A stretch of DNA of 62,538 bases, the filler included, from Nemertoderma westbladi (Eukaryota; Animalia; Xenacoelomorpha): the NCBI GenBank assembly GCA_032718475.1. It is 3 parts of 3 records of this genome, joined end to end, with 100 filler letters (N's around TTAATTAATTAA, not from the genome) between each part and the next. Parts side by side here need not be neighbours in the genome. Positions count along the whole stretch, not along the records: positions 22,062 to 47,681 come from JAUCBJ010002911.1; 2 more parts are not named here. The stretch is one strand, 5' to 3'. This document shows, piece after piece, positions 23,631-58,829 of this stretch (its first letter is position 1; every line of letters starts with the position of its first letter). The notes beneath the pieces are model-generated. The model had not been told where the DNA came from and did not search any database. It worked only from the letters and a program-made list of their open reading frames with translations. Both the position numbers and the translations under genes were made by a program.

Positions 23631-23825
23631 GATGAAACTAATATAAAATCTGCAACATTTCATAATATTCACCCGTAAAAATGACAATAAACAAAAAAAT
23701 AAGAAACCTGTGTGAATAAAGAAAATATTTAAGGTACAGTACTGCAACTCATAACATACTGTATTAAATGATTGAATACGTCGCCATATATCACTGTGAG
23801 TGTGAGTGTGGGCACTATATGACTG

Positions 23826-25670
23826 CTAGACACCGTCGAAGGTGGGGAATTTCCCTGTTAGTAATATCTCCTCGGCTTTATAAGAGGGGAACACCCCAGT
23901 TCTACCGGTGCGGAGATTATCCGCCTTCGAGTAACCGTTCCAATGGTTCCCGGCTATGTGCAACTTATCCCCAATCTCGATGTCCAACTCCCCGGCGCGC
24001 CGCGCCTTGTGCGCCCAAATCGCACGCAAATCGTGGCTCTGCTGCCCCCCGAAGTAAAAAATATCGTCCAACGAGCGGTAACTCGCATAGCCGTCGACGT
24101 TGCGCGTCTGCATCACCTCGTAAGCGAGCCGGCAGACCTGGGAGGAGAACGTGCAGACGAGGTAATCGCACTGCCCCAAGAAGAATAAGTCCAACACGAT
24201 GCCGTGGAGGGAGGCCTCGGTGAATCGGGAGCCGAGCGAGGCGGTCCGCGCGAAATCGGGGTCGCCTAGGAAGCGATACCGCGGGAACCTGTTCCTCGCG
24301 TCGGCCAAAAGATTGGGGTCGTCCGTGGCCAGATACACCCGGCGTTCCGTCACGTTCTCCCGCAGTTCCAACTGGTAGTACCAGTCGTCTACGTGACGCA
24401 TGTACTCGGATACATCGTGGAAGGAAGCCTCGGTGCCGACCTTGTCGGTTCGTCGTACATGAACTCCGACTATCGGGTTAGCGAACCCGATGTCTGAGCT
24501 CATCTCGCGGATAGCGGAACGAGTCGCGTTGGAGTAACGCATGATGTAGCGAACCAGCTGGCCGAGCCACCAGATGGGCGGGTCCCCGTGGATCGCGGAG
24601 AGAACCTCCGCGAATTCCCCGGGGATCGCGAGCGGGAGGTAGTCCGGTCGGTTGTTTATCGCGTCTACGATCGGGAGTTCCACGACCTGGGCGTGACGCA
24701 TCGAGCGATGGCTGCCCCACGGGCGACGGTTGTAGGACCCCGCGACGCTAACGCAACTCGCGCTCAGCGGCGCGAACACGCTGTCCCAACCGCGCTTAGT
24801 GTAGCGCCAACTAGCGGACTCCAACACCAGCGTGCGCTGCGTCCCCAAGGCGACCATCAGACAGTAGACCAGATGGTGTATCTGGCAGCCCAACCCGCAG
24901 GCTTTGTTCACCGAGCATACTAACTTCCTGGCGTTCACGCAATCCGGCGGGTTCTGTAACGCAAAAAGTCTGCGTTGTATGACGTCACTGAGTCTGTCTG
25001 CGACGCCCTGCCGCCAGGCGGCGTTCAACCCCCCCAGTCTGGTGAACCCGTCTCGTATCACTCTGTTGTGCTCCTTCGCTCGTTCTAAGAAGTCCCCCAA
25101 CGCCTCCTGCGGAAGGCTACCCAGCTTCGCCTGGCGTTGCAACTCAGACACTTCAGAATTTATGAGCCACCAAAAACTAGTCACGTCTTCGTCTAACTTC
25201 CGTCGGAGTTTCTCATACTCTCCGGACCGCAAAAGACTTAAACCGGAAGGCAACTGGATGCTATCGAGGGGGGACGAGTCGGGTTTACCGGTAGCAACTG
25301 GAATCGGAACCGGGGATACTACAACTGCCCCAACTACTGTAGACTCGTTTGTCACCGCCGATAACTGGCGAGTTAATATCTTGAGTTGTTTGTTCTCCTG
25401 GCTGAGTTTATCGAACTGTAACTTGAGTTGGAGGTAGTCGTCGCGGATTCCGCTGGGTTGTCTGTGCGACGGACCGGTGGGGTCGGTGGACTGCGGTACC
25501 ACGGGAGTCTGTTTGAATAGCACGATCAGGAAGACGACCCACAGCACTGTCAGGATTCCTAGAAGATTCCATAGCGAGGATTTTAAACAGCAGTAAATCA
25601 ACGATAATTTCATCGCACGATCTACGATGATGTTACAGTCAGACAGTGTTATAGGAACCGGAAGTTGCAT
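23826..25670 (-). CDS. FUT8: Alpha-1,6-fucosyltransferase (GT23), intronless CDS
   Basis: 614-aa ORF with an N-terminal TM anchor, coiled coil, LQNPPDC..KLVC..NKACGLGCQIHH, VGVHVRRTDKVGTEA, YLATDDP, DYLVCTFSSQVCR and a C-terminal SH3 (GNHWNGYSK..GVFPSYK). The true start may be the second Met (25613). Confidence 0.97.
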   Translation of the reverse strand: MQLPVPITLSDCNIIVDRAMKLSLIYCCLKSSLWNLLGILTVLWVVFLIVLFKQTPVVPQSTDPTGPSHRQPSGIRDDYLQLKLQFDKLSQENKQLKILTRQLSAVTNESTVVGAVVVSPVPIPVATGKPDSSPLDSIQLPSGLSLLRSGEYEKLRRKLDEDVTSFWWLINSEVSELQRQAKLGSLPQEALGDFLERAKEHNRVIRDGFTRLGGLNAAWRQGVADRLSDVIQRRLFALQNPPDCVNARKLVCSVNKACGLGCQIHHLVYCLMVALGTQRTLVLESASWRYTKRGWDSVFAPLSASCVSVAGSYNRRPWGSHRSMRHAQVVELPIVDAINNRPDYLPLAIPGEFAEVLSAIHGDPPIWWLGQLVRYIMRYSNATRSAIREMSSDIGFANPIVGVHVRRTDKVGTEASFHDVSEYMRHVDDWYYQLELRENVTERRVYLATDDPNLLADARNRFPRYRFLGDPDFARTASLGSRFTEASLHGIVLDLFFLGQCDYLVCTFSSQVCRLAYEVMQTRNVDGYASYRSLDDIFYFGGQQSHDLRAIWAHKARRAGELDIEIGDKLHIAGNHWNGYSKADNLRTGRTGVFPSYKAEEILLTGKFPTFDGV

Positions 25671-25736
25671 GCAATAACCTCCATCACAGATGATATAGGC
25701 CTACAGATATTACAGCATTATCAGATATACAGATCT

Positions 25737-26327
25737 GCGCCCATGTGAAGAATAGGCCTACCAGGATTTCACTTTTCGGTCGACTTTTTATTGGAATTTT
25801 ATATATGAAGATTTTTTATCTTTTTTAATTTATCTTTATGAAGTGTTTTATACAGTTATAGCGCTTATTTCTGTCTTATAACAGTATAACCTGTACATAT
25901 AGGCCTACTAATTTGTTTTGGTTAGTGGTTTGTGTTGCTGTAACCTGTGATTTTGGTGAAAACCTGGTATTCTTCACATGGCTGCATGGTGGTAACTGCA
26001 AAGTGATATATAACGGCAGAAAGTCTGGTATTCTTCACATGGGCCCAGATATATGGGGCATCAGATGAAGGGTCCATGTGAAGAATACAAGACTTTCTGC
26101 CATTATATTTCACTTTGCAGTTACACCCCCATGTGAGCTGAATCTAACCAAAACAATAAACGAATTAGAATATGTACAGGTTATAAGACAGAAATAAGCG
26201 CTATAAAACACTTAATAAAGATAAATTAAAAAAATAAAAAATCTTCATAAAATTCCAATAAAATTGTAAAAGGTCGACCGAAAAGTGAAATACCGGTACT
26301 GGTATTCTTCACATGCAGACATGGGCG
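25737..26327. mobile_element. Two inverted copies of a MITE (TIR ~GCCCATGTGAAGAATAC) forming a ~590-bp palindrome
   Basis: 25737-26046 and 26069-26327 are mutually reverse-complementary (e.g. atttcacttttcggtcgac / gtcgaccgaaaagtgaaat). Each copy ends in CATGTGAAGAATA termini. Confidence 0.8.
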
Positions 26328-27841
26328 AGATAGGGAGACTTTCGCTACCGGCAACCGGCCACTGCCTACAGACAGACTGACAAACCTAACCTAAGTTTAC
26401 ACATACGTCATACTGACATAAACTAAGCTACATGCAGACATGACCTACTGCCATGACCAACGGTTTCTTGGCTCTATCGCACTACAGACAGACAGGCAGG
26501 CGCCTCTAGTCTGATATCCCCGGTTTTCTCCTGCAGGACAGGCAGACAGGTTTCGTGGTGAGTTAGCTACAACAAAGTACCGGTGTGGATTACAAATTTA
26601 AACTACAAGAAAATAAAAGTGACAAAAAGGAAGGGGACAAAAAATCGACGTTAAACATGTAGGCCCATCGTAACCTAAATATTTGTTATTAAAATCAGAA
26701 AATATCATGAAAAATATAATTCGACAATGTTTCCTTTAAAACTAAATCCTCTATAAATAGAATCTCTGCTTTTCTCCAACCAACGTGTTACCCAAATGAA
26801 ATTAGTTAACAATAATTCAATTCAATTATTTAAAAAAACGAAATTATTATTGAATGAGGAAGACTTGTTTTCCGGATACTCAACATCTCCAAGTTATTGA
26901 TTGGCAGTAGCTGTAATATCAATTCATTTGAACAAAAATTCCTCAATTATAAATTCAAAAAGACAAATCATTACTCATCGACCTGTCAAGAAACCCAAGT
27001 TAAATGGTGTAAACAGGAACAAACGCACCAACACCACCAACTCCTATATTAATAGTGTCCATCTTGGAGGTTCTTACCTTGACAACCAATGGGGAGCACA
27101 GCAACCGTGGGGTGCCCACTGCCAACCTTCTACATGTCTCCTCCCAATCAAACTACTCTACTTTGGTGAATTACAAAGTTTTCGATCCATATTAGCAGCA
27201 ATACAACCCGGAACCATGATGTGGGGGCGTGTTGTGGAGATTTCTCTATCTCGCTAGTGCGATTGAATTTGAATTACATAGAATTCAACAACAAAAATTG
27301 ACAGCGATGATTTTGTGAAAACTAATTGATCGTGACGGCAGGGTTGTTGGCCAATATTCTGTCATAATTTGATGTTAATAAGTGCAGTGCTGAGGCTGAC
27401 ATGTGAAACAGTAACATGGGTGTCATAGTCAAGTGGGGTATGGGGTTGAGTTTATGTAAGTGCGTGTGAGCGTGTCGCCAAACATGTACTCAATCACCCA
27501 CAGGCGCTCAGCGCATAGCAGCCACGGCTGTAACTATACAATACGATTAGCGATCAAATCATCCCAAGACATTTCACCCGCTAGGTAAACTAGTTAAATT
27601 TTTTTTTACATGAAGATACACCCCCAGTCGGGGTAAATATAAATTATAATATTATTGATAATAGGTATGTACGCGCACAGTAAATCATAATTAGACTAAT
27701 AGTTTAAGGTAAAACTAGATAAATGCAGACTGATTAGCTGACTGAAGGGCGTTACTTGAATTAACTGGTATGGGGGGGGGGGGGGGGGGGGGGGTATTCG
27801 AGTCACGGCGTTTATTAGGGTAATTAAAAAGATAAAACTTA

Positions 27842-28687
27842 CGGTGGCTGATTGTGGCCAATTATTTCAATTTTTTTAAATGGTCATCTGGGTGAAAAAC
27901 ATTTATCACCCGGGTTAAAAACCTTTTTCACCCAGGTGAAAACTATCTGGAAATCAGATCTCTCCAGGCACCTGAAGACTAAGTTCTTTCGAGCCACAGT
28001 GGAAAGTGTATTTTATACGGGGGTGAGACCTGGACACTGACTATAAATCACTTGAACAACGAATTGATGGTTGCTACGCAAGACTACTAAGGGCAGCCCT
28101 AAACATCAGCTGGAGACAACACATGACAAACGCCGAGCTTTATGGTACAATACCACCCGTATCAACCACCCTCCGTGAACGCAGATTACGATTCAGTGGG
28201 CACTGCTGGCGAAGTAAAGACGAGGTCATACCAGATCTACTTTTCTGGCAACCAACTCATGGAAAGCGTAGACGTGGACGATATATAGATCAACTTGAAA
28301 GGGATACTGAACTTGGGAGAAACGAAATTGCGACAACTATGGAGAATCGGGAAGCCTGGAAGGATCTCATTTCCACTGTCCGAGTCCGCTCGACCTAGTA
28401 GTCACCCAGGTGAAAAACATTTATCGCCCGGGTGAAAAACATGTACCACATCAGAACTCTGAATACATGTGGTCAGAAATAGGCCTAATATAGAAAGCTA
28501 ATTTTGATACATATTCACTCTTGGCGAATTAATATCTCGACCGCTGTTAATAATCAATTAAGGGAAAGGATCAGGTTACAGTGGCATGTAATTCTAACCA
28601 AAACAATAAACGAAAGACAATAGTTAAACATTTAAATATTTTTCACCATGGTGAAAAATGGAAATAATTGGCCGCAATCAGCCACCG
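27842..28687. mobile_element. TA-flanked non-autonomous DNA transposon (MITE) interrupted by an RTE LINE
   Basis: TIR CGGTGGCTGATTG(T/C)GGCCAATTATTTC at both ends, flanked by TA. Internal caccc(a/g)ggtgaaaa repeats. Confidence 0.8.
27943..28401 (+). mobile_element. 5'-truncated RTE-clade LINE
   Basis: IWKSDLSRHLKTKFFRATVESV..RLRFSGHCWR..LFWQPTHGKRRRGR, a TAGTAG tail and a 15-bp TSD tcacccaggtgaaaa (27928-27942 / 28402-28416). Confidence 0.88.
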
Positions 28688-29320
28688 TAGAAAACTAAAA
28701 TTTAATTTTCACACGTTTCTCTTAACCTAGCCTATAAGATAGAACCCGCGTTGAAAGAAAGATCATGAAAACAAGGAAAATAAGTATCGTTGTCGCTTAC
28801 TAAATAATAGCTAACTAGCTACTCGGGAGTCGGGAATAAAGAAAACATTTCAGAATCGATAAAACCACTTAACCAAACTCAAATATGTAGGGCGGGCGTG
28901 GGCGTGGGCGTGGGTGCAATAAAATCCCCTATTAAACTTATATTTTCGCTAATAAAACACGATAATCTAACTAGGAACGGGCTATAAAACCATTCAGCAG
29001 AACTCCAGAAATAATTAGTATTCGCTGGAGCCGGGATTGTAAGCAGGTTTACAGTTTCCGAGGGAAAACTCGCGCATTGTAATCAACTATTTAAATTCGA
29101 TTTCAAGAGAGGCCGGACTTGGAGTGGAATTCCCACACTTGGGGGGTACCTTCTATACGGTGGAGATAGCGCATACAATTGATCGCTGTTGAGCTGTCGC
29201 ACGGTTGTATAAGTAGTAAGAGAACCGCCCCTGTTGCCTATTTATTAAACGCCATCGCTATATGCCGCCATTATGAACAATCTTTATAGTTTCCAACACA
29301 AAAATATAACGCAAACTCAC

Positions 29321-29598
29321 CTAGGCCCGAAACGACAGCAACCAGTTCGCATGTAGAACATGCATTGTTGGATTCCCCGAGGCGGTTCCTTTGAGTTAAA
29401 TCCATCGCTTTTTATTGTCTGTTGTTCCTTCTGTGCCACCGCATCGCTATTTATTGACAGTGGGACTGCGGCATGCCGTGTGGTATAGGGTGGTTCGTCT
29501 TTCCACCCGGTGGTGGAACTGTCACCATCAGTGGGGTGGATCGATGGGGTAGGGGGTGTTCGTGTTGTGGGGGGTGACTGAGGTTGTTGGGTGGCAAC
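29321..29598 (-). CDS. ZRSR2: ZRSR2-like splicing factor, exon D (start of CCCH zinc finger 1)
   Basis: cttctctag|GTT..CCT AG|gtgagt, 278 bp. VATQQPQSPP...GIQQCMFYMRTGCCRFGP(R) resembles CPFYSKTGACRFGDR of ZRSR2. In frame with the upstream exons. Confidence 0.88.
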
Positions 29599-29809
29599 CT
29601 AGAGAAGGGTGCAGTCGCCGTGACTAAGTAATACAAACCTAGGAGTGTTAATAACTGAAGTTGGATAATTACTGTTAAGGACTATTATACAATTATAGAT
29701 TTTATCAAAATAAGCAAGCTGATGAATTAATTTCACAAACATGACTAAAATCCACTGATAGGTACAGTATAAGCATATAAACCTTAAGTAATAAGTTAAT
29801 TAAGTATAA

Positions 29810-30051
29810 GGAGGCGGGGTAGCTCAGTTGGTTGAGCGCCGGGCCTGCAATCTATTGGTTGTAGGTTCAGCCCCGCCAGGGTCCACTCAGCCTTTCATCC
29901 ACTGGGCGGGGTCGATGAAATGAGTACCAGTTATATAACTGGGAGCAAATCTTGGGATAGGAGTAGCGCCCACCCCTACCCTCGGGTAGCAGCTATCGAA
30001 CGAGGAGCCTTCGGGTCGCCTCCGGCTTCGGCCGACTGTTTGCTTTTTTTA
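29810..30051 (+). mobile_element. tRNA-derived SINE
   Basis: A box TAGCTCAGTTGG, degenerate B box GGTTCAGCCCC, central ACTCAGCCTTTCATCC..GGTCGATGAAATGAGTACCAG, 3' hairpins and a T tail. Approximate TSD aagttaattaag (29793-29804 / 30052-30063). Confidence 0.85.
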
Positions 30052-31045
30052 AAGTTAATTAAGATATGTAGTAGTTCATTATTATTCAAACAATGGTGTT
30101 AATAAAAGTTTGGTACATTGAACGCCGTTTTCGGGGTGTATACGACATTTTAATTCAGTTAAGGGGTTATTCACCACCGCGACTGATAGCCGGTATTGTA
30201 GACCCTAACTGAATTAATATGATAATAAAAGTAATTTAAAGCCGTGAAAAATAAAATATTATTTTATTTATTTGTATAGAATTAATTTCGCACTACCAAA
30301 TCGCCAGGGCGACATATTTTCCAACTTTACATCGCAGTGCGACATTTATTTCTCAGTATGTCCCTACGCCATACAATTACTATCTATATCCAGTATGTCA
30401 CCGTGTTATTCTGAATTAAATCACATAATAAGTATTAATTCACAATTATACAACTTATTACAAAAATTAAATAAGTCAGAATCGAACCAGCGACCTTTAC
30501 ATTCATAACTCGCCGCGTTATCCACTACGCTTATTTAGTACAAAATGAATGTTTAAATAATTAACATGTCATGCTTTCCTTTTACAAGGTTATTCTAGAA
30601 ATGTTAAGTGCATAATTACAAATAATTCCCCAAAAAAAAAATAAAAATAGATTCGGCAATTTTCAAAATTAGCGCTTTAAAGCCTTTACACTGCACGGCC
30701 CTCGTTTTGTTATTTCCCTCGTACCGTAACGCTATAAACTGCTATTTTATGAACCCTGACGTATATAGTTAAATTACTTAATGTTGAGCACAGCTTAGCA
30801 ATATCGGCTTTGAGCCAAGTTGCAAGTCTATCGATTCCGAAACCCCCCCACCTGGTGCGAGTTTAGCGGGTCTACTACTAACCTTCCCCCTATGGCCCCA
30901 ATAGCGCAAACACAATGCTCGCCCAACCTTTTGGTTGTTAGATCCCAGTAAGGTCTATTATACAGCAGCAAAGGCCCCATTAATGTACGTAAAAGCCCAA
31001 CCTTTTAGGGGGATGTATTTAACTGATCTTATTGCACCAATATCT

Positions 31046-32175
31046 ACACCAGGTGTCTGCACCAGGTTGCTGTGGCACCAATGTTTGCACCAGTGTCTGC
31101 ACCAGGTGTCTGCACAAGTGTCTGCACCAGTGTCTGAACCAGGTGTCTGCACCAGTGTCTGAACCAGGTGTCTGCACCAGTGTCTGTACGAGTGTCTGGA
31201 CCAGGTGTCTGCACCAGGTGTCTGCACCAGGTGTCTGCACCAGGTGTCAGCACCAGGTGTCTGCACAAGTGTCTGCACCAGTGTCTGAACCAGGTGTCTG
31301 CACCAGTGTCTGTACGAGTGTCTGGACCAGGTGTCTGCACCAGGTGTCTGCACCAGGTGTCTGCACCAGGTGTCTGCACCAGTGTCTGAACCAGGTGTCT
31401 GCACCAGTGTCTGAACCAGGTGTCTGCACCAGTGTCTGTGCGAGTGTCTGGACCAGTTGTCTGCAGCAGGTGTCTGCACCAGTGTCTGAACCAGGTGTCT
31501 GCAGCAGGTGTCTGTACCAGTGTCTGAACCAGGTGTCTGCACCAGTGTCTGAACCAGGTGTCTGCACCAGTGTCTGTACGAGTGTATGTACCAGGTATCG
31601 CACCAATGTCTGCACCAGGTGTCTGAACTAGGGGTCTGCACCAGTGTCTGTACCAGGTGTCTGCACCAGGTGTCAGCACCAGTGTCTGCACCAGTGTCTG
31701 CACCAAGTGTCTGCACCAGCGTCTGCACCAGGTTTCTGTACCAGTTTCTGCACCAGGTGTCTGCATCAGTGTCTGCACTAGGTCTTTGCACCAAGTGTCT
31801 GCACCAGGTGTCTGCACCAGGTGTCAGCACCAGTATCTGCACCAGTGTCTGACCAGTGTCTGCACCAGGTGTCTGGACCAGGTGTCTGCAAAGTGTCTGC
31901 ACCAGTGTCTGCACTAGGTGTCAGCACTAGTGTCTGGCCAGGTGTCTGCACAAGTATGCACAAGGTGTCTGCACCAGTGTCTGCAAAAGTGCTTGCAACA
32001 GGTTTCAGCACCAGTGTCTGCATCAGGTGTCTCAGTGTCTGCACCATTGTCTGCACAGGTGTCTGCATCAGTGTCTGCACTAGGTGTTTGCATCAGTAAC
32101 TGCACCAGAGTGTGCACCAGAGTGTTCACCAGTGTCTGCATCAGTTTCTGCACCAGGTGTCCGCACCAGGTGTTT
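31046..32175. repeat. 12/13-bp minisatellite (TGTCTGCACCAG[G])
   Basis: Degenerate tandem array. It produces the many overlapping spurious ORFs in this interval. Confidence 0.92.
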
Positions 32176-32525
32176 ACTTAACTTTTAGGCACTTTCACAC
32201 ACTTTGTTTAATTGCCGCGACTTTTATCTAGCCTTGAATTTTAGTTTGTTTGATCAGACTGCCTGTCTGCTGGTATCTGGTCTGTGCTGTTGTGGTGCGC
32301 TGTTCTGTTCTGTACTGATATAGTTAATACGGAACTAGACTTGAATGTGACTTGATGACAGGATTATATAGGCCCAGTGGATAGTCCGAATCTGCAAACG
32401 AGAAAACAAGGAATCTTTATTTAGCTTGGTTGGTACCGGTACTGGTACAGCAGTAGTACCGCCACTGAAGTTGAAATCACCTGTTCGACTGGATTTGTTA
32501 ACAACAACTGATCAATAATCAGATA

Positions 32526-33032
32526 ATGGCGAGTTACTTGAGAAATATTTCGTTTCTCATTCACAGACTGAATCTATCTCAACCTTTATACCAGCCCACG
32601 TATACACAAACCCGGAGCCTTGCCGGTCGTAAAACTCCCTCGAAACGCCGCATAAGACTCGCCCGAGAACGCCAAGAGGAGGACCGTAAACTAGCGGCGA
32701 CAGCGGCATCGAACCCGTACGCTAAACCTCCGGTAAGGTGCTACCTCTGCGACAACCCACACCTCGAGGTGAACTACAAGAACACCCAACTGTTGAGCCA
32801 GTTCATAGCCCCCCAGACAGGCCGCATAATGGCGGGCCGTGTGACGGGACTGTGTCGGGAGCAACAGGCCCGTGTTCGAACTCATATAATGTGGGCCCGA
32901 CTGTGCGGATACCTCCCTTATATGCACAAGGAAACGGAGTACATGGAGGACAAAGTCTATCACAGCGGCAGTGGTAGATGGACAACATTTACCCGTAAAG
33001 CGCACCCACATAAATTCATTAATAAATCCTAG
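32526..33032 (+). CDS. MRPS18C: Mitochondrial ribosomal protein S18c (bS18m), intronless CDS
   Basis: 168 aa. Arg-rich targeting-like N-terminus, then NPYAKPPVRCYLC..VNYKNTQLLSQFIAPQTGRI..VTGLC..GYLPYMHK, matching the S18c pattern NPY..C.LC..DYKNVQLLSQF..ITGLC. Confidence 0.9.
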   Translation: MASYLRNISFLIHRLNLSQPLYQPTYTQTRSLAGRKTPSKRRIRLARERQEEDRKLAATAASNPYAKPPVRCYLCDNPHLEVNYKNTQLLSQFIAPQTGRIMAGRVTGLCREQQARVRTHIMWARLCGYLPYMHKETEYMEDKVYHSGSGRWTTFTRKAHPHKFINKS

Positions 33033-33143
33033 ATGATTTTTTGACATGCAATAATTTATACCTCACAAGGCAAATTATAAAGGTAACGTAGTTTTCTGTA
33101 TTAACGTAAAAAAAAGCTGTGTCCCTATCACCTAAACTGTAAA

Positions 33144-33342
33144 GGGCCCCATGACAAATAGAGGCAGACTTTCTGCTGTTGTATTTCACTTGGCTGTTTA
33201 CCCCCCATGTGAAGAATACAGGTAATAAGATAGAAATAAGAAATATAGTATATATATACCCTATAAAACATTTAATAAGGAGAATTTCAAAGAATACAGA
33301 TGCTTCAAATTTTATGAAAACCTGCTATTCTTCACAAGGGCG
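33144..33342. mobile_element. MITE of the same family as 25737-26327
   Basis: cccccatgtgaagaatacagg...aagatagaaataag...tattcttcacaagggcg. A further terminal fragment lies at 42906-42947. Confidence 0.7.
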
Positions 33343-34205
33343 TGTTCTAGAATGTACCGGTACACATTTTTACAATTTGGGTATCATGATGAGGAGATAT
33401 TGCTGAATTTTAGTCAATCACTCCTAGAATGTAGAATTCTAAAATAGTAAGTTACTTGTTTTATTTTACAGTGCGTTCTGGCTTTCATGACCAGGGTTGA
33501 CAAAAAAAAAATATAAAAACAGGTTTTATTATTAAATTGTTACTTTTCCGCTCGAATATACCCCAAAATCGCGAGAAAAGGTTTTACTTTTTCCCCAGAG
33601 AAAAAACGTAACCCATATATGATTGATTTGTATTGACTGATTGGATTGTATTGATTTTACTTTTTCTCCCCATAAAAGTAAAATAAAATATTTTTGGTGT
33701 AATTTCTTAAATTTTATTACATGTGTTGAAAGAGCATCGAAGTAGAAAAGGTTTATGTACGTAATTTTAATGTGTACGTAAATAATAATATTTTTCAATA
33801 ATAGTGAAAAAAGTTATACCTTTTTCCCATGTAATAAATAATTATTATAACATTGCTGAGACCATGCAAAACCAATGCGCCTTCATATTCGCATAAAAAC
33901 AAAGAATAGGCGGCTACAATGGAATTAATAGTAATATAGTACAGTACAATGTATTCTAACTATTGTAAAAATTATTTACAATTACTGCATTGTAAAACTT
34001 TTATATTGAAGTGATACGAACAAAAAATGTTATGTTTATTTGCATTACCATAGGCATTACAAATTTTGGTACTGATAGTCGATATCATAAACTTCACTAT
34101 TAATTAATTAATCTATATTATAAAATAATTTCAATGATAGATTAATATAAGGATACTAGAATGAAAAAGGATATCAATCTCCAGGTAACAATGTAACTGT
34201 GGCAC

Positions 34206-34328
34206 CTCGGATCCTGGTTTAAGGGTTATCCGTGGTGGTTTTGCCTCGCCATTTTCCGTATCATCCGCCCTTCCTCTCGTCGTAGGTTCTGCCGCCTTAG
34301 TTGCTTCCCATTCTTCTATGATTTTTAT
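34206..34328 (-). CDS. ZRSR2: ZRSR2-like, exon C
   Basis: ttgtctttag|ATA..GAG|gtgcca, 123 bp. IKIIEEWEATKAAEP... (cf. RKLKEQWEE). Phase 0/0 fits its neighbours, but the donor is weak. Confidence 0.72.
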
Positions 34329-35228
34329 CTAAAGACAAATAAATAGCTAGAAAATAGCTAAGATAAAACCAGAACCGAGAAATGATCTTATTTTTAGGCC
34401 CGGTTTACACGTGACGTGAGCTAAACCCTATCTGGCCCGGGCTATTTTACAACGTAATTGGCGGGGGGGGGGGGGGGGTTTTAGAAATCTTTCTCTCTTT
34501 GAAGTCTTGGCTCAAAAATTACAATGTTGATACAAATGTTTTGTGGCAGTTCCATAATTTTTGGAGCTATTTTGGTCCCCCAGGATGTAAAGTACAAGTA
34601 ATAAAGAAAGTCAAACTAAAACATTATGTGGTTGGTTTGAGAATTCTGAAAGTGTACGTGTTTTCGAGGTCGCTGTTCACGATCAAACTAGTTATAAATA
34701 TTTATGGTAATGCAAATCCAATTTTTGTGCCCTTCTGGTGCCCCAGAACGAAAAGTACAAGTAGCAAAAAATTACAAACTGTTAAATTTTGCCTCTGGTT
34801 TTGTAATTCTGAAGCTGTACTGGTTTTCACCAGTAAATACAAGTAGCATACAATTTCAAACAGCAAAAATTGAATTTGGTTGGATAATACAGGTGGATTT
34901 GTTAATAATTTTTGATTATCAAATTTGTGCTATTTGTAGTTTGCGTGCCGCGCATTGACACATATCTAGAAAGGCCTAATCAACAAGGTACGCTATATTT
35001 CAGTGACATATTCGTGATCAGCATCTCAAAAAACCTATATATGGTCATAAAATGGTACCGGGTTCGAGCCCCAATTGGGTCTGTTGATATTTTTCGCTAT
35101 GGAGAGCATTTTAGGGCTATCATATAGTCCTACTAGCAACATTGCTATAATCGTGATCAGCATCCAAAAAAACCGCTATATATACATACACCATGTCCTG
35201 GAATATAGGAACAATAAATAATATGTAA

Positions 35229-35831
35229 CAAATATGTAACATAATATAAATTTCGTCTTAAAATAGCTGAGATATCAGCGTTTAAAACTTGTATGGTTTT
35301 ACATATGAGCGAGGCTATTTTATTCTATTAAAAAACTACAACATATTCTGGAATATTTTGTTTATCCCATAAGTTGCTTGGGAACAATGCAATACCTCTT
35401 TAATCATACTATTACATAGCTACGTATTAGACGGCCTAATATAGACGGCCAAGTACTGTAGGGTTGAGCACAGTGGCAGCAGATGATGGTATGACAGATG
35501 GGAGGCCATGAGGAGGTAAATTGCGGGCATACAAGGTATCATATAGTATTTCCAGGTCTATCTTTTACCTGAGCCGCTAGCTGAATGGTTAGAGCGTCAG
35601 GCTTCCAACCCGGAGGTCACCAGTTCGATCCCACCTGGACGTCATTGCCGTCTTTGCAAAAGCTGTGCCCAACATAAAGTTATAATAGCTACTCATGCAT
35701 TAACAAAATGTTCCAGAATGTTGTATTTTTTTAATAGAATAAAATAGCCTCGCTCATATGCAAAACCATACAAGTTTTAAACGCTGATTTCTCAGCTATT
35801 TTAAGACGAAATTTAGATTATGTTACATATT
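35229..35831. repeat. ~130-bp inverted repeat pair enclosing a tRNA-like SINE head
   Basis: 35229-35361 is the reverse complement of 35702-35831. Interior 35572-35645 has TAGCTGAATGG and GTTCGATCCC (A/B boxes) but no complete acceptor stem. Confidence 0.75.
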
Positions 35832-38159
35832 TGGAATCCTTGCACAACCAGCTTTCCACAAGTACCTACAAATCACTATAAGGTTGAAGAATAACTGCGG
35901 TGTAACTGGTGCAATTTTGCCGGAGACGCTTTTTTCAAACGCTTGTAGCTAAATAATTAAAGCGAAAATAAAAATTCTGGCTCACCCAGCAAGGAGGAGG
36001 GAGGTGAAACTATCTCTGTTTCAAATTTCATGCAATCTCATTACGATTTGTAGAAAAATTTGGGGTGGGGGGGGGGGGGGGGTGGGGGCAGGTACCGGTA
36101 CCTGAATAAAGACACTATATTCCAGGACACGGTGTATATATACCGCAAATAAATTATTTTAGTGAGCCATAAAAACGTTTTGACAATTTTAGACGAAAAA
36201 TACTGGAGATGGGAAGAAAGAGAGCAGAAAGGGACCAAAGTACGAATACTAACAGCCATGTAAATGGCGTTTGCTCTGTTGGATAGTCCATTACATTTTA
36301 GGAAAAGCCAATAAATCTCAGTTTTCCCAACAAACCTGACTCAAAGATACAGATGAATTACAAAAAATTTCGAAAATGACCCCCCCCCCCTGGCCCAATA
36401 GGATTAAACTATCAATTATGGTGAATTATCAGGGTTAAAAATTGCAATTCTGCCGTGCTATATGAAAAGACCATAGGTAAAAAAAGGTCATTTCGAGTAA
36501 AACGTAAAATACTGTTGCCTTCAGATTGTTGGTTTAAAATGTCCGTAAATTAGTATTTTTTTAAACAACCCTTCTATTTTTCTACGTGATTATTTTTCAA
36601 ATTCCATTAATATTTTGACTTCAGGGCTATTTTTTGTACTTCGGTGTTTTTGAATTTTTCAACCTGTATGTAAATACATTCAATGCAATGCAAAAAATTG
36701 TCACAATGATAAAACACCGCAAGTTTGTCAGTTGCGGTGTTTTTAAATTGTGTAAATTTATTGTAATAATTATGTAAGTAAGTAATTCCCCCCCCCCCCC
36801 CGCCGTTTTTAATTTGTAAACAACACGAAAGTGGTTGCATAAACGAAAAACTGCCCGAAATTAATAGAAGCTTATTAAATTACAGTATCATTATGAAGCG
36901 AAAATTACAAAAATTTAAGAAATGGCAGAGGAGTAGTATTTTTTTGCGTGAAAATATTTAATTTCGAGAAAAGTGCTTTCAACGTTTATACCTTTACGCC
37001 CAAAACTATCTGTCTTGGGTCTGGTTGGTTATTCCATTCAATCACCTATGTTGGCCGCCTTAACTACTATACCTCGGGGTCATAATGGTGCAACGGGGCA
37101 CAACACAGACCTTTTTAACCGAGAGATAGCCTCCTGTATACACAGGCCCGTATGGTGACCATTATATCTGGGGGGGGGGGGGGGGGGGGCAGAGGCCAAA
37201 TCTGGGGGGGCAAACCCATAACTGGGTTTGGGGGGCATACAGCAAAGTGAGAGTTAATTTCGTACATAAAGAAAAATCAATATTGTTGAAGAGTGTGTGG
37301 GGCGAGCCACGAAGTTGGAGGACCCTTGTTGAACTGGCACTGTTAAGGGAGTGGGCCAATAATAGCAAATAGTATATACAATTCCCGACTAGGGTCAGCA
37401 ATGTAGGCGCTTTTTCCGTGGTACTCCGTGCACGCACCTACTGGTGCGGCATTGGACCCGTCTGATGCTGATATCACTCACTACTGCCTCACATCACTAA
37501 GGTGCGGATGGAGTAAGTTCGCTATAGACAGTCCGCAACACCTGTTGGGTCGCCGCAGACGGGTGGGTGCCCTGATGGACTGCCCAGTTCGTGCACCCCT
37601 CGCGCAGCGCAAGCTCGCGTCCTTCCCCGACAGTCGAACAGTTGTGACAAATAACCCAAATCGTCTTCAGCTCTCACCCTTTATTTTCATTATTCTTATT
37701 ATTTATAATATTTCAATTATTTTAATATATTAATAAATTTACATTGTAATGATTAATTACTTTTTAATTTACCCTTTTAACCAGCTCTCACCCTGGCAAT
37801 TCATCTTAAATTTTAAGAATAGTGCCCTTTTACTCTCTTTTTATCTTTTCTTAATTTAGAGTTTATATAGGTGGGTTTAAATTTTTTGAGCTTATTTTTA
37901 CTTATCGATTACTAAGTAGTCCTTGTTTTGTTTGTTAAATCAGTCGTCAGTGTAGGACTGTAACACTACTTGCCCGTTGGGCGAATTAAAAACTAATTAT
38001 CATTATTATTAATATCTGAATTTCATTGAGAAAGACCTGAAATATATGCGTTCAAAGATTGCAAGAATTATCGTTCAATGGAGACCAATTATTATATTTA
38101 ATAAGTACACAACATTCTAGAATGCATTTATAATGTTGTCCTACTTATTTCATGAGCGC

Positions 38160-39190
38160 TTATGGTCAAATGTTCCACAGGGTCAAAGCTTCCACAATCC
38201 ACAACTGGGTCAAAGGTTCCACACATTTGTCAAACGCTTAAATCACTCCTGGGTCAAAGCTTACATAAAATGTGTCAAAGGATTCACACATTGGTCAAAG
38301 GTTTCACAGATGGGTTAAAGGTTCTACAAAATGTGTCAAAGGTTCCACACAGTGGTCAAAGGTTCCACAGCTGGGTCAAAGGTTCTACAAAATATGTCAA
38401 AGGTTACACACAGTGGTGAAAGGTTCCACAGCTGGGTCAAAGTTTCCACAAAATGTGTCAAAGGTTCCAGAGCTGGGTCAAAGTTTCTACAAAATATGTC
38501 AAAGGTTCCACAAAATGTGTGAAAGGTTCCCCAGCTGGGTCAAAGGTTCAACACTGGATCAAAGGTTCTAGAAAATGTGTCAAAGGTTCTACAAAATGTG
38601 TCAAAGTTTCCACAGAGTGGTCAAAGGTTCCACAGTTGGGTCAAACAGCTGGGTCAAAGGTTCCACAAAATATGTCAAAGGTTCTACAAAATGTGTCAAA
38701 GTTTCACACAGTGGTCAAAGGTTCCACAGGTGCGTCACAGGTTCTACAAAATATGTCAAAGGTTCCACACAGTGGTCAAAGGTTCCACAGTTGGGTCAAA
38801 GGTTCAACAGCTGGGTCAAAGGTTCTACAAAATGTGTCAAAGGTTCCACACAGAAGTCAAAGGTTCCCCAGCTGGGTCAAAGATTCAACACTGGATCAAA
38901 GGTTCTAGAAAATGTGTCAAAGGTTCTACAAAATGTGTCAAAGTTTCCACACAGTGGTCAAAGGTTCCACAGCTGGGTCAAAGGTTCCACAGCTGGGTCA
39001 AAGGTTCCACAAAATGTGTCGAAGGTTCCACACAGTGGTCAAAGGTTCCACAGGTGGGTCAAAGGTTCCACAGATGGGTCAAAGGTTCCACAAAATGTGT
39101 CGAAGGTTCCACACAGTGGTCAAAGGTTCCACAGCTGCGTCAAAGGTTCCACAAAATGTGTCAAAGTTTCCACACAGTAGTCAAAGGTTC
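38160..39190. repeat. ~20-21-bp minisatellite (GTCAAAGGTTCCACA core)
   Basis: Alternating variants ending gctgg / aaatgt / cagtg. Source of the repetitive ORFs here. Confidence 0.92.
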
Positions 39191-40224
39191 CTGTTATTCA
39201 CATTGTTTTGTGACCAGTTTTTGATAATGGTCAACCATTTTTTTTACTGTGGTTGAGTGTTGTCCATTTTAAGGTGTTGTCACAAATTCCACCTTTCTTG
39301 TATAAAGGCGAATATTCGCAGCGTGAATTGAAACGAAGCCGGTAGGTAGTAGGTGGTCCGCGTTTATATAAATCATATACTCGAAGTGGGGCATTCGCGC
39401 AGCACGTGACATAAACTTATGTTAAGTGTTAACTCGCAAGAATTATAAGCAAAATATAAGCAGAGGTACCCTAATCACTTTACCACCTAAGAGGCAGACT
39501 GGATAACTGCAGTCGAATCACAACATGCAGACATCACAAAACTCATTATGATGTCTAGATTGTATGTGCCAGGAATCAATCAGGAAGAACGGATTATAAA
39601 CAATATTACTAAGCGACAGAAGGTTTTAATTTTAGATATTTCTAAAATATTTTCTACTACACTGTTCAGCTACAAATTACACTGTATAGTATACCAGCTA
39701 TATTTTAAAATAATCTTTATATAAAAACATATATAACAAGAACAGCAGTTAGTCAGTTTATAAAATAAAAGACAAAAAATGAACTAAAATGCAGGTATAT
39801 GGGGCGAGCTACGATGCTACGAAGTAAGAGAGCGTTAGCTTATGGGTACCATTAACCAGTTGTCGGTCGTCGTAAATTATTGATCGTTAATAACTCTGAA
39901 TAATGGGTCTGTAGCAGTTGGCTTTTAAGTGAACTTTTAACTTTACCTATTAGGTGGGATATAATGGTATTGCCCAGGCAGCTTGGAACCTCTCCTAAAC
40001 GTATGCAGATATTGAGTGAGTATGTTTGAAATAGCCATGCAGGGTTGTTTCTGGATTAGAGTGTAGTATGTGTTCTATTAATTGATGGACTTTTAAGTCT
40101 GTAGTAACTTTAGTACATTTAATAAGTAATTATTATGTTGCTATGCAATAAGCAAAATGTATATATAAATAAACAATTTATATCTAAAATGATTAGAGCA
40201 AGCGAAGCCCAAGTTTATATAATA

Positions 40225-41930
40225 TTATGTATAAAATCGATTAATATTATAGTTAAAAAAGTTAAAATCACTATCACCTCTATCATAATCTTTGACATAG
40301 AATTGTTGCAACTTACTGCATCTTCTCCACACGAAGTCACAAAATTGCTCAATGAAATGCACATCTTCGTTATAGCTGTTCTCATCCGTGACACGACAAC
40401 TTATTACTCCTTTCATATTACCGGCATTGAAAATGTTCTCGAAATCAACAAATGATTGCTCTTCCAGACGGTGGGGTCCAACTAAACCAAATTCAACTAT
40501 AAGTGTAGTCAGAGAGAATAGAGATCGCAATGCCATTACCACACTTCCGTAGCTACATCTCTTCATAACCAGTGTCGAAACTGACTCTGTTAATGGGGTG
40601 CTCTCGACTCTTAATCCGCAATGATGTAGAGCCAATGATTGTAGATTCGGAAACAGTTTAACAGATCTACCAATGACAGGAGACTTCCATGAAGCTGCAA
40701 TTTCAAATACATTATTCCGGATAAAACAACGCCGTTTTGGGCGGCTGTGGTAATGATGTTATGAACAACGTACGAAAACTTATCACAAAGAGTCAACGAA
40801 GATAGTTTCTGGAATTTATTCATTACATTGAATAAACTTTGATCACGTAGCAGATCTGCTTTCGACGGATGGTTCCGCCAATTTAACTTGAGGCTTTCCA
40901 ATGAATCTTTGGAAATAGGAATAACAAACTCATTAAGGGTATCAACCATAGACACACTGGTGTGGAGACCGCGAAGAATATATCGGTTGTAAAGATTGAA
41001 ATTGGCGAAGTTTAATCCGATTTTATGAAGGTCGCATTCCGTCAGGTTGAATTGTTGGTCCCTAGTTAATATGTTGAGTAATTCCATAGACATGTTTGTG
41101 ACTATGGAAACATTGGGATATTTTAAAAGGAAGTTATCAAATCTTTTAATCATTTCCCCTGTAGAAAAGTTGGGAATGTTAATGCTTATTCTTTCCAGCT
41201 TTTTCATTTCGGGCAGGAAATTGGTAGAAAATAAGCTGTAATCAGTAGAACAATAACTCGCGACGTGGAGATTTACCAGATTAGGGCAACAGCGAGCAAT
41301 ACCTTTTACAGTACTGGAACTGAGACTCGTACCAGAGATGCTTAAGGAAGTGAGTTGAGGGAACACAACGGATTGCGCTAAAACTTCATTCAAGTCTGTA
41401 AAACCGGATGTATCGAGAGTCTCCAATGCAGCGGCCATCTTAGGAAGCCAACTTACTAAAACCGGGATGATATCAGAAGGGAACTCGTCTAGAAAGAAGT
41501 CATCAATAATAACGTTGACAGGCCACTGAGGCAGCATACAATCCCAAGGGAAGATACATGAATACGTTTCCATAATACCTTTCAAGGTTGGTGTGTCTGT
41601 ATGCTCCATTTTAGATTCATTACTTATCGATAATTCGTTATGTAACAACTTCAGCTGGTTGAATGCGATGATGTAGGAATGAAGATAGAACTTCCATAGA
41701 TTGTTGCGGAGTTTGGGAGCCAACCTTTTCAGCCACTGTGAGACAGATGTCCAATGGTCACTCTCTGCACTATCAGAATAATTGTTGTCCCATTTCTTTC
41801 GTTCAGCTGTTACAATACTGTTAACCAACAATCGAGTCAGATTGACAATACCGATTTCTTGGAGCGACAATAATCGACAGTTCTCTCGGAGTATAACGGG
41901 TCCTTCCCCTAAACATTTACTGGAGTACAT
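40225..41930 (-). CDS. Intronless leucine-rich-repeat protein with one apparent 1-nt frameshift near 40651-40653 (sequencing error or young pseudogene)
   Basis: The 439-aa ORF has LRRs (LETLDTSG, FPQLTSLSISGT, CCPNLVNLHVA, FQKLSSLTL). The next frame continues as FPNLQSLALHHCGL..LFSLTTLIV..CSKLQQFYV to the stop at 40225. The N-terminal LLSLQEIG is BC-box-like (inference). Confidence 0.75.
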
Positions 41931-44599
41931 CGTTAGATAATTATGCAGCTTCTGGGGGTAGATTTAACGCAGAAGTAGGCCTACTTACCGCTACGTACGT
42001 GTACATAGGTTTTTAAATAATTTTTTAATTATAGGTACAGGTAGTTTGATTTATTTATCTGTTTATCGTATCTTTACCATATAATAAGTGTTGACATCGC
42101 CTGGAGTGGAGTTTGGAACTGGTTTATTCCCAAACCCCGTACATCCATACGGTCTCAGCACTTATCCTTATACCTTATCTACTGTTACTGTTCCTACTGT
42201 TACTGCTACTGTTATTGTTCCACAGTTTGGTGTAGTATGATATGATAGTACAGTACAGATGTAATCTATCTAACTTAGGCGATGCTTTGAAGACGACACC
42301 GATGAAGCACATCTCTGCGCCAGCCCCTCCAGCGTATGCAATCCGACATAGCACATCCATTTTAGCACCAGTCGAAATGCTGCGCCGAACGTGTTCGGCG
42401 ACCTTATATAACTTTCAAAAGGACAGACCTTACCTTACTACAGCTTGACAACGCATTCAGATCTGAATCATTCTAAAATCTAACGGCAGCCAAGCCAAGT
42501 ACAACTGTAGTACAATCGCAGTCGTCCTACCTCTGACAACGTATTCCAGTAATAATGCTCAACTAGCCATTCATTAAATGAATCTAATATATAAATAACG
42601 TCGTGAAAATAATGTTCCATTTAAAAATAAAATTACTGTACGTATTACATGTTAAATAACGTGGAACATATTTTCACTGTGATCTCGATTCTTTATTAAC
42701 CTCGCTCTGCGCTCGGTAAATAAAATACCGAGTATAGCAGTCAAAATAATATTCTACATTATACTACCATGCAATAAATAATTACTACTTTTACCGCATT
42801 GTAAAGGATAATGACACTAAATATACTGTTGCTAGGTAATCGAATCCCCACAAAAGAGTTGGCAAGGGTTATCCAATATCCATCACTATCGATGGGAGAA
42901 CTGAAGTCGACTGAAAAGTGAAATCCTGGTATTCTTCAAATGGGCGCTTTGGTGTGGATGAGCTATAACATCATGAACATGAAAAATTACCCCCAGATCG
43001 CACGTATCCCCTGGGTGAACATTTCAAAGAACACATTTAGGACTTCGGCTGTAATAATATCACCTATTAAATTACTAACGTATTCCAGTAAATAATAATA
43101 TTACAAATACTAGAGTATGTAAGAGAATGTGCAACACGGTAGAACTCCAACTCGCGGGATGTTGCATTGATAACAGATAGAATTAATACACATTCGTTCA
43201 CGTTCGTTAATGTTCTACACCTGGTAAATATAATAGCCAAAGCGATGTTGTCAATAACAACCTCAATAATATCAAACAATAACTGGAAAACAAGCAGCGC
43301 TTTATTTCCCCAGAATTTCCCCATTATTTGAGTAAGTAACGATAATTGTACAAAGGGGCCATAAATAAGGGATATAAATCTAATTATCTTAGGCCGATAT
43401 GTAAATGTCAATATCCCTCCTCCATATCGGTTAAATCCGAAATAAGTTTAATTTTAAATAAAAGCACTCACGAGTGTTGGAATACTTTAATATTAATTAA
43501 ATATTTTTATAAGGTACCTTTTTGGGCTGGTGGACTCTTCTATCGGGAATACACTTTTTAGATTTAGCTCTTTGGGGCATCTTTCTTTGCCATTTATTCA
43601 ATTGTTTTATATTTAAAATGTATAATTAATCTGTTTTTATCTTTAATTTAACAAGATTTTAATATAGCCGCTGGAGGCGTAAGTCCGATGATAAATTAAA
43701 ATTAAAAAAATATGAAATTACCAAAAAATACCAAAGTCAGCAGTTTATGTGAAACTTTAGCAAGTTTATAATAAATTAATGTTCCTAAACGACATGAAAG
43801 TGTGATCACACTCAGCCTTATGTTGTAACTTGTAATTGCCGTCAGACATGAGACCTGTTCGAAATCTTGAGCACGACAACCCGAACGGAACTGTTAGTAC
43901 ATTCCCTGTAAGCCCGTATCATTGTCAGGAATAATAATATTGCGATAATCAATCGACTGATAACACAGGATTCAAGGGGCCTATTTTGCCACCAGACGCC
44001 CCACCGCAGCGCAAGTTTGATTTATGTTTTGATGTTACTAGCTAAATTTGAGTTACGATTCTAAAGTTGCACAAATTGTTTGTTAGTAAACGTCATTGAA
44101 GTTAAAAGCGCGAACAGAAGGGTAGCACGAACTTAGTTCCTATTGAAACGAATTTAGTTCCAAAATAAATTTTATAAAGCGAACTTGGTTCTAATCGGGG
44201 CGAACTTAGTTATAATCCCAGAATATCAAAACGAATTTGGTTCCAGTGGTGGCGAATTTGGTTCCAATGTTTCAATCTGGGGCGAGCCACGAAGTAGGCT
44301 ACGCCTTTGAAGAAATATAGTATCAATATTCAGTATGTCTTTATCTTTCACTAAATTTCGGTTCATTAGATCATGAAAATTCTGGTCGATCCTCCACTGT
44401 AACTATACGTTAGTTACCTTTACCTTATATGGGATGGTAAACAGTTTAAAGCAATTGGATAACTCAACTCGCATATGGCATACTTTATATTATACTAATA
44501 TTAATGATATTTACTATCTTGTATGACAACCTCGTACTAAACTCCTGTCTGTCTTACTATCTGCAAATAGTAAGTGAAAGCCAAACAGACAATAATTAC

Positions 44600-44716
44600 C
44601 TCATCTTCATTCTTCCTCCTGATTATCTCCTGTTGCCATAGGAACTGTTGCTGAGCAACGCGTTCTCTTTCCAACCATTGCTGGTGTTGGCGCCTACTTT
44701 CTATTTCTTCCGACAT
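44600..44716 (-). CDS. ZRSR2: ZRSR2-like, exon B
   Basis: catttag|ATG..GAG|gtaatt, 117 bp. MSEEIESRRQHQQWLERERVAQQQFLWQQEIIRRKNEDE resembles ERQRLHEEWLLREQKAQEEF. Confidence 0.88.
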
Positions 44717-44773
44717 CTAAATGAGTAAAGAATGGACACAACCTAGTAATAGTATGTATGAGCTAATACACTT

Positions 44774-46088
44774 AGTTCCAAAACGTTTTTCTTGAATTCC
44801 AAAACGTACCTGGTTAAGTTCCAAAACGTTTTTCTTGAGTTCCAAAACGTACCTGGTTAAGTTCCAAAACGTTTTTCTTGAGTTCCAAAACGTACCTGGT
44901 TAAGTTCCAAAACGTTTTTCTTGAATTCCAAAACGTACCTGGTTAAGTTCCAAAACGTTTTTCTTGAGTTCCAAAACGTACCTGGTTAAGTTCCAAAACG
45001 TTTTTCTTGAGTTCCAAAACGTACCTGGTTGAGTTCCAAAACGTACCTGTTTAAGTCCCAAAACGTACCGGTACCTGGTTAAATTCCAAAACGTACCTTG
45101 TTAAGTCCCAAAACGTACCTGGTTAAGTTCCAAAACGTACCTGGTTAAGTTCCAAAACGTACCGGTACCTGGTTAAATTCCAAAACGTACCTTGTTAAGT
45201 CCCAAAACGTACCTGGTTAAGTTCCAAAACGTACCGGGTTGAGTTCCAAAACGTACCTGTTTAAGTCCCAAAACGTACCGGTACCTGGTTAAATTCCAAA
45301 ACGTACCTTGTTAAGTCCCAAAACGTACCTGGTTAAGTTCCAAAACGTACCTGGTTAAGTTCCAAAACGTACCTGGTCAAGTTCCAAGACGTACCTGGTT
45401 AAGTTCCAAAACGTTTTTCTTAAGTTCCAAAACGTACCTGGTTGAGTTCCAAAACGTACCTGGTTAAGTCCCAAAACGTACCTGGTTAAGTTCCAAAACG
45501 TACCTGTTTAAGTCCCAAAACGTACCGGTACCTGATTAAATTCCAAAACGTACCTTGTTAAGTCCCAAAACGTACCTGGTCAAGTTCCAAAACGTACCTG
45601 GTTAAGTTCCAAAACGTACCTGTTAAGTTCCAAAACGTACCTTGTTAAGTCCCAAAACGTACCTGGTTAAGTCCCAAAACGTACCTGGTTAAGTTCCAAA
45701 ACGTACCTGGTTAAGTTCCAAAACGTACCTGGTTAAGTTCCAAAACGTACCTGGTTAAGTTCCAAGACGTACCTGGTCAAGTCCCAAAACGTACCTGGTT
45801 AAGTTCCAAAACGTACCTGGTTAAGTTCCAAAACGTACCTGGTTGAGTTCCAAAACGTACCTGGTTAAGTCCCAAAACGTACCTGGTTGAGTTCCAAAAC
45901 GTACCTGTTTAAGTCCCAAAACGTACCTGGTTAAGTCCCAAAACGTACCTGGTTAATTTCCAAAACGTACCTGGTTAGGTTTCAAAAACTACCTGGTTAG
46001 GTTCCAAAACGTACCTGGTTAAGTTCCAAAACGTACCTGGTTAAGTTCCAAAACGTACCTGGTTAAGTTCCAAAACGTACCTGGTTAA
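44774..46088 (-). repeat. 22-bp tandem array made of the ZRSR2 exon A splice-donor junction, ~60 units
   Basis: Minus-strand unit TTAACCAG|GTACGTTTTGGAAC: the last 8 exon nt plus the first 14 intron nt. The first unit is the real donor at 46081/46080. Confidence 0.93.
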
Positions 46089-46201
46089 TGTCCGACTCTT
46101 TGTGTCCCGGTAACTGAGGTACAAGGTATCTTCTCTGCGCTAGCCTTTGTCGTATTAATTTACGGCGCATTTTCTTCCAATGTTTTTTGTACTCTTTTCG
46201 A
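46081..46201 (-). CDS. ZRSR2: ZRSR2-like, exon A (first coding exon not located)
   Basis: ttttttttag|T CGA..CAG|gtacgt, 121 bp. RKEYKKHWKKMRRKLIRQRLAQRR.. resembles HKKYRAALKKEKRKKRRQELARLR. Confidence 0.85.
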
Positions 46202-58822: not shown

Positions 58823-58829
58823 TCTAAGA

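Follow-up and report, generated by a model that had tools for sequence, protein, structure and literature searches.

How can a spliced gene hold intron-free genes in its successive introns, two of them on its own strand, and still yield a continuous message? This question is raised by a locus of the xenacoelomorph Nemertoderma westbladi (GenBank assembly GCA_032718475.1), which lies in a stretch of 62,538 nucleotides, filler included, referred to here as the window. The window probably consists of three joined contigs, and our unit of evidence is its 25.6-kb piece at 22062-47681 (JAUCBJ010002911.1). A reasonably probable reading of this piece is that it carries a spliced host gene, likely ZRSR2, with an intron-free LRR gene in its intron B-C, an intron-free MRPS18C in intron C-D and likely an intron-free FUT8 in the intron that follows, each of the three likely transcribed in its own right and two of them, FUT8 and MRPS18C, we infer, of retroposed origin.

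Sequence and sequencing runs

The piece is bounded by an artificial-looking sequence:

21962-22061, no strand: linker N44-TTAATTAATTAA-N44 at the contig end, 100 bases with a stop in all six frames; an identical copy lies at 47682-47781.

We interpret both copies as artificial joins. What the sequence-only reading had called a gap at the end of the piece is this stop-codon linker between joined contigs. The three pieces of the window have just three short repeat matches in common and are probably unrelated contigs, a point to bear in mind for results that span the linkers. Contigs of four sequencing runs (X1, X2, X3 and X4, of which X2 and X4 are one sample) were aligned to two stretches of the piece, the FUT8-side stretch being 23640-29720. 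No run is recorded as RNA; in contig alignment and depth X1, X2 and X4 behave as DNA, whereas X3 differs.

The host gene is spliced

Four exons of the host were recognised, all on the minus strand:

46081-46201, minus strand: host exon A, with AG/GT ends and an open frame; basic, 42% charged.
44600-44716, minus strand: host exon B, with AG/GT ends; X3 record 23 aligns here (44596-44718) and nowhere else.
34206-34328, minus strand: host exon C, with AG/GT ends; X3 records 23 and 24 imply its length of 123 and its opening letters.
29321-29598, minus strand: host exon D, a Pro/Thr-rich linker and the first half of a CCCH finger (C-x8-C), ending in phase 2.

Each exon is preceded by AG and followed by GT, and together they form one open frame of 212 codons, so that every coordinate originally proposed for in-frame splicing holds. 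The introns measure 1364 bp (A-B), 10271 bp (B-C) and 4607 bp (C-D), with a further 7259 bp from exon D to the contig end. Exon A starts in phase 2, which calls for at least one further exon upstream; of the 13 pairings of an ATG with a donor in 46241-47681, none was convincing as a first exon.

Evidence that these exons are joined comes from X3, a run labelled 'DNA?' that we take to be spliced complementary DNA (cDNA). Its depth is 0 in nine unique intron bins (within 26482-27090, 27294-27496, 28715-28917, 42045-42410, 42960-43508 and 43692-43874), whilst none of the 60 bins in the two stretches lacks cover in X1 or X2. Record 23 (505 letters) carries 263 letters before exon B and 125 after it, and the latter equal exon C (123) plus GT. 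Record 24 (862 letters), aligned solely at 29318-29600, carries 28 letters before exon D and 556 after it, and by itself accounts for the X3 depth over this exon. Given an exon C of 123 bases, the two records overlap by 30, which is k-1 for 31-mer contigs, and the break between them comes after the first two letters of exon D, at the point where spliced sequence (GTT) and unspliced donor (GTG) diverge. The overhangs read AG before exons B and D, and after exon B show one mismatch and then three matches, as the start of exon C predicts; the 263 letters ahead of exon B end in AG, which is compatible with exon A and no proof of it. Past exon D, record 24 matches for three letters, GTG, before the match ends, which implies Arg followed by Cys or Trp, with Cys as the third ligand of the finger, and its 556 letters beyond exon D align nowhere on 23640-29720. 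Taken together, the record lengths and overhangs, the zero intron depth and the 556-letter continuation argue that X3 is cDNA and that exons B, C, D and a next exon are joined. The cDNA check suggested alongside the original exon model has thus come out in its favour for B-C-D, and other runs labelled 'DNA?' like X3 may be overlooked RNA evidence.

A next exon beginning C-x3-H was sought throughout 22062-29320, where the sole AG/GTG site falls in a LINE fragment and has no His at +4. No downstream host exon was found in 25670-29320 either, a result that would otherwise have taken FUT8 out of the nest. In the neighbouring pieces, two of 18 AG/GTG sites have His at +4, and both were rejected, as they close within 19 codons and are unlike a finger.

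Two intron-free genes within the host, and probably a third

The genes in the host's introns are as follows:

40225-41930, minus strand: LRR-type gene in intron B-C, on the host strand; two overlapping frames in the window, 568 codons if joined.
32526-33032, plus strand: MRPS18C (bS18m) in intron C-D, opposite to the host; a single open frame of 168 aa (PF01084, E=9.4e-16).
23826-25670, minus strand: FUT8 alpha-1,6-fucosyltransferase, a single open frame of 614 aa with its own N-terminal membrane anchor, probably in the intron after exon D.

In the single run X3, exon B is spliced to C and C to D, which places the LRR gene and MRPS18C inside introns B-C and C-D, respectively. The placement proposed for them from the sequence is upheld by these joins. 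The 32526-33032 frame is MRPS18C and not S18A or S18B on its PDB scores: the best matches are bS18m/MRPS18C (E ~1e-16, compared with 4e-8 for S18B and 1e-7 for S18A), with 61-65 bits for bS18m against 37 and 35 for mS40 and mL66. A word search for the same protein was uninformative, none of its 39 candidates reaching E<=0.001.

FUT8, a member of family GT23, is complete, with its type II anchor, PF19745 at residues 34-539 (E=2.5e-165) and SH3_9 at 550-597. At E<=0.001 we retained 592 of 7994 scored candidates as homologues, of which the best 120 are 40-54% identical to the window protein and align to it with no long gaps (the longest gap having a median of 2 and 4 residues). In a quick tree of 56 rows (55 of those 120 homologues plus the window) its branch, which that tree does not place, is 2.09, against a median of 0.22. 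This low identity and long branch appear to reflect a fast-evolving animal that has no close relative in the database searched. X3 record 17 covers 23640-25734 with 0 gaps, which leaves the coding region unbroken. Compared with X2, only 2 of 2093 bases differ, as opposed to 18 of 2188 in nearby intron (p=4e-4); both differences lie upstream of the start and the coding region has none in either X2 or X3, which shows that FUT8 is constrained. X4 hardly covers the gene. Its composition also departs from its surroundings, with a GC content of 0.57, a third-position GC (GC3) of 0.71 and a CpG observed/expected ratio of 1.22, compared with 0.40 in the intron and a GC3 of 0.46 in the host exons. X1 and X2 show no second copy at >=82% likeness, their depth over the gene being flat at the level of one contig. 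We considered splicing at AG 25735, upstream of FUT8, and rejected it because X2 has a different letter there. Introns of fut8 are ancestral and occur in animals ranging from placozoans through cnidarians to vertebrates; of 56 orthologues, one is named as intronless (PMC4204859). The gene described here is therefore intron-free where its orthologues have introns, as an orphan retrogene would be.

That FUT8 is nested in the intron after exon D is likely, provided that the contig is colinear and that splicing occurs in cis, since the host message continues for 556 letters elsewhere and 22062-29320 holds no candidate exon. The suggestion that it occupies the following intron is borne out to this extent, and otherwise depends on a contig that has not been bridged.

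The LRR region is covered by X3 at 39614-41963 in two overlapping contigs. As X3 covers this gene and FUT8 without a break, the coding region of each is free of introns and represented in that run. Resemblance to known proteins is limited: the Pfam match is weak (LRR, E=2.5e-4), the look-alikes in the Atlas, at 0.94-0.96, belong to unnamed LRR clusters from arthropods and chordates, and a fold predicted without an alignment had a mean predicted local distance difference test (pLDDT) score of 41.9 and was not used. Contigs of X2 and X4 have 892 letters over the 891 window bases of 40323-41213, while the X1 contig over 40716-41544 has no gap. One base is therefore probably missing from the window in 40352-40716, the overlap of the two LRR frames, and the frameshift is probably an assembly error. 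The X3 contig of this gene has a compensating pair of gaps. A further one-base deletion falls somewhere in 39614-40351 and cannot be placed inside or outside the LRR frame, and three runs share a 6-base in-frame deletion in the gene.

Among the 40 differences listed of 212, 27 fall in the LRR frames, of which 7 are synonymous and 20 non-synonymous, with no stop; the synonymous share expected is 0.215 (P=0.36). In X2, 17 of 1298 bases differ over the LRR pieces, against the 18 of 2188 in nearby intron (p=0.16). Given this intron-like variability and the 20 non-synonymous changes among the 27 listed, we regard the LRR gene as intact yet fast-evolving, and not conserved. The idea of one nested conserved gene per intron consequently survives in part: introns B-C and C-D each hold one gene, but the LRR gene is not conserved and the short intron A-B holds no gene. 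No AATAAA occurs in the 3' flanks of FUT8 or the LRR gene; an ATTAAA at 39630, just before the end of the X3 contig at 39614, is too weak to use. Separately, X2 depth spikes within the LRR gene at 41313-41495 (1046, compared with ~26), a feature that is absent from X1 and X3 and is unexplained.

Identity of the host

The host is likely ZRSR2 (URP), a splicing factor related to U2AF1. Its long charged N-terminal region (39-42% charged over residues 1-120) followed by a CCCH finger matches the architecture of that protein, in which an N-terminal domain precedes Zn1, with C181 and H191 (10.64898/2026.10.05.756190). The finger has the C-x8-C spacing and the next residues fit C-x5-C. There are differences, in that about 50 additional Pro/Thr-rich residues precede the finger relative to human numbering, and the UHM, second finger and RS region lie outside the window. 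The host's phase-2 intron falls 14 codons after the first Cys, equivalent to human codon 186 by cysteine spacing. We take the human gene to have introns at codon 186 (c.557) and at c.41, although we found no paper giving them, and exon A presumably resembles the ZRSR2 N-terminus. A human ZRSR2 donor at c.312 is documented (PMC12173198). The name draws on half a CCCH finger and on background knowledge of the family, with no database match: the architecture originally seen as ZRSR2-like does fit, whereas the name itself was not confirmed by any sequence search.

Repeats and other features of the window

Two high-copy repeats separate FUT8 from exon D, and a tandem array fills most of intron A-B. 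MITE and LINE stand for miniature inverted-repeat transposable element and long interspersed nuclear element.

25742-26315, no strand: MITE-like high-copy element whose inverted repeats are nested, ending 72 bp ahead of where FUT8 starts; X1 depth ~1e5.
27945-28402, plus strand: LINE-type high-copy fragment, X1 depth 3.5e5-6.6e5 against 9-13 in unique flanks; a frame resembling a reverse transcriptase tail lies at 28027-28398.
44797-46088, minus strand: 22-bp minisatellite of 58 copies, derived from the exon A donor site and occupying most of intron A-B.

Pieces related to the MITE lie at 33165-33347, 130 bp downstream of MRPS18C, and at 42904-42951, ~1 kb upstream of the LRR gene. The minisatellite contains 44 CAGGTAC and 5 AAGGTAC donor-like sites, of which only the first leaves the frame open.

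Elsewhere in the window we note:

1-2033, minus strand: broken hAT-type transposase frames in the first piece (DUF4371, E=6.5e-10).
53253-53654, minus strand: immunoglobulin (Ig)-domain exon (Ig_2, E=8e-4).
58823-60133, plus strand: 436-aa frame of a LINE reverse transcriptase, immediately following a 55-bp array.
61552-62066, plus strand: second, broken LINE reverse transcriptase copy, 2.7 kb further on.

The LINE reverse transcriptase matches RVT_1 at E=4e-23. The 55-bp array (95 units, 96% identity, 53588-58822) is apparently built from the acceptor of the Ig-domain exon, so that two splice-site minisatellites, one from a donor and one from an acceptor, occur in 62 kb.

Discussion

On this reading, each nested gene would have its own start inside its intron, and the host polymerase would read through the two same-strand genes, FUT8 and LRR. 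Being intronless, such genes would offer few splice sites in competition with those of the host. Their poly(A) sites would be ignored within the host intron and used on their own messages; suppression of intronic polyadenylation by U1 and exon definition is an established mechanism. As to origin, FUT8 and MRPS18C may be old processed (retroposed) copies that landed in introns and replaced their intron-bearing parents, as orphan retrogenes, the window itself containing LINE reverse transcriptase that could serve such a process, whilst the LRR gene would be a fast-evolving lineage gene of the ordinary nested kind.

Several observations weigh against this interpretation and need to be set beside it. 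X3 is a single run that is not recorded as RNA, and its contigs reveal neither the strand nor where messages start and end, while rare joins are lost from them. For the host's name, a search with exon A at E<=0.001 over 1.84 billion representatives gave 0 matches, as did PDB, and a word search gave no candidate; exon D found only unrelated or generic CCCH matches, with PF00642 at E=0.017, below the cut-off. The blank in PDB may arise because ZRSR2 is invisible in minor spliceosome structures (PMC11874965). No listed short-read contig crosses either repeat block between FUT8 and exon D, and no downstream host exon anchors FUT8, whose parent, if below 82% identity, would also escape the depth check in X1 and X2. 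The intron-rich structure of MRPS18C in other organisms is background knowledge of its orthologues. Introns may yet lie in the 5' untranslated regions of FUT8, MRPS18C and the LRR gene, and the last of these shows no clear purifying selection. Finally, no poly(A) remnant is found near the 3' ends of the three nested genes, so that retroposition stays a proposal; with age, such remnants would be expected to disappear. An equally good fit is that the introns were lost in place and the genes then moved at the DNA level, and one MITE family lies near all three.

That last scenario keeps the nest and changes its origin: introns would have been lost in place across the lineage, and the short genes then carried into introns as DNA, aided by transposons or by rearrangement. 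The closeness of the MITE family to FUT8 (72 bp), MRPS18C (130 bp) and the LRR gene (~1 kb) suits it, as does the missing poly(A) remnant, and 1109 of 2357 nested genes in Hormiphora californensis have a transposon beside them on one or both flanks (PMC8527503). The long FUT8 branch (2.09 against a median of 0.22) may likewise be typical of a rearranged genome. However, the MITE is so numerous (~1e5, compared with a depth of 5-13) that adjacency is expected, the host has kept its introns, and the loss of every intron from a 1.8-kb frame would most simply be a single RNA-mediated event. We consider this origin unlikely. A different doubt concerns FUT8 itself, which could have been mis-assembled onto the contig at a repeat, or the remaining host exons could be joined in trans, leaving two nested genes. 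The unique blocks 23640-25769, 26220-27630 and 28678-29720 are indeed separated by high-copy repeats that are unbridged among the listed contigs, and the piece is short (25.6 kb) and probably contains at least one base error. Yet the repeat blocks are only 0.5-1 kb each, while tandem arrays of 5 kb are spanned in this assembly, the first block has intact, matching inverted ends, and exons A-D stand in order over 17 kb, all of which makes such an error quite improbable.

It might also be supposed that the same-strand genes borrow exons or a promoter from the host and act as alternative terminal exons. One site would permit this: the AG at 41952, which lies between exon B and the start of the LRR gene, has a short pyrimidine run and is in frame. 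X3 record 20, however, is colinear to 41963, 12 bases upstream of that AG, and records 23 and 24 cross the donors of exons B and D unbroken, bearing in mind that rare joins drop from contigs. FUT8, for its part, has its own anchor, and none of its six upstream AG sites is in frame with exon D. The unbroken records and the LRR contig that runs past AG 41952 argue that borrowing is not the main form of these messages, and we regard it as highly improbable. A spliced host with self-transcribed, intron-free guests, of which FUT8 and MRPS18C may be retroposed, is the reading that we retain.

If it is correct, the locus is a clean experiment of nature on the way in which a host polymerase gets past two poly(A) sites on its own strand. 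Three broadly needed genes, for a splicing factor, a mitoribosomal protein and a core fucosyltransferase, would have to be co-expressed, contrary to the fly rule by which nested pairs avoid each other's expression. One may go further and propose, very tentatively, that this lineage replaced many intron-rich housekeeping genes by intronless copies lodged in the introns of the remaining spliced genes, with most large introns holding a gene, which would make orphan retrogenes and nesting the rule in its genome; we think this rather unlikely, and one window picked from many cannot establish a lineage-wide rule. A genome-wide pattern would be strong evidence that retrogene replacement has reshaped the architecture of genes, and would imply that gene callers miss or truncate hosts in this genome. 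As a single locus, it would be just another multi-gene nest.

Comparison with known nested genes

Nesting as such is common, with nested genes making up ~10% of fly genes and MOB2 containing 13 of them (PMC4394429); across fly and Hormiphora the reported share is roughly 10-12%. The claim that two guests co-oriented with their host are unusual did not withstand comparison, since single-exon guests on the same strand are the pattern expected from the literature: in Drosophila 72.53% of same-strand nested genes have a single exon (PMC3814207). RNA-mediated insertion is a frequent source of nesting, and most nested genes are young, fast-evolving, RNA-derived duplicates (PMC5174743). The LRR gene resembles these fly genes in being single-exon on the host strand and in its rate of change (PMC3814207, PMC5174743). 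FUT8 and MRPS18C differ from them, as fly nested genes are typically young and narrowly expressed duplicates (PMC5174743), whilst these two are ancient and FUT8 is strongly constrained. Orphan retrogenes, of which 25 scattered human cases are described, are likewise intron-free sole copies under strong conservation whose counterparts elsewhere have several exons; the terms 'nested' and 'host gene' do not appear in that account (PMC3548309). Our literature search, weak and partial in coverage, returned no report of such an arrangement or of a lineage with intronless nested housekeeping genes.

The closest parallels come from two animals. Hormiphora californensis has 2357 nested genes in 1654 hosts, with several genes per host (four in one figure example), many of them parallel to the host and often flanked by transposons; intronless housekeeping genes distributed one per successive intron are not described in the accessible part of that report (PMC8527503). 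Human NF1 likewise hosts three unrelated coding genes, OMG, EVI2A and EVI2B, but they share one intron of a 283-kb gene and are all antisense (PMC4394429). In N. westbladi there is one gene per intron, the introns measure 4.6-10 kb, and two of the three guests are on the host strand. The surprise is therefore a modest one and lies in the density, with two large introns and an open third each holding a gene, and in the nature of two of the guests. What stands out is that two ancient housekeeping genes, at least one of them intron-rich elsewhere, are intronless in successive introns of one host.

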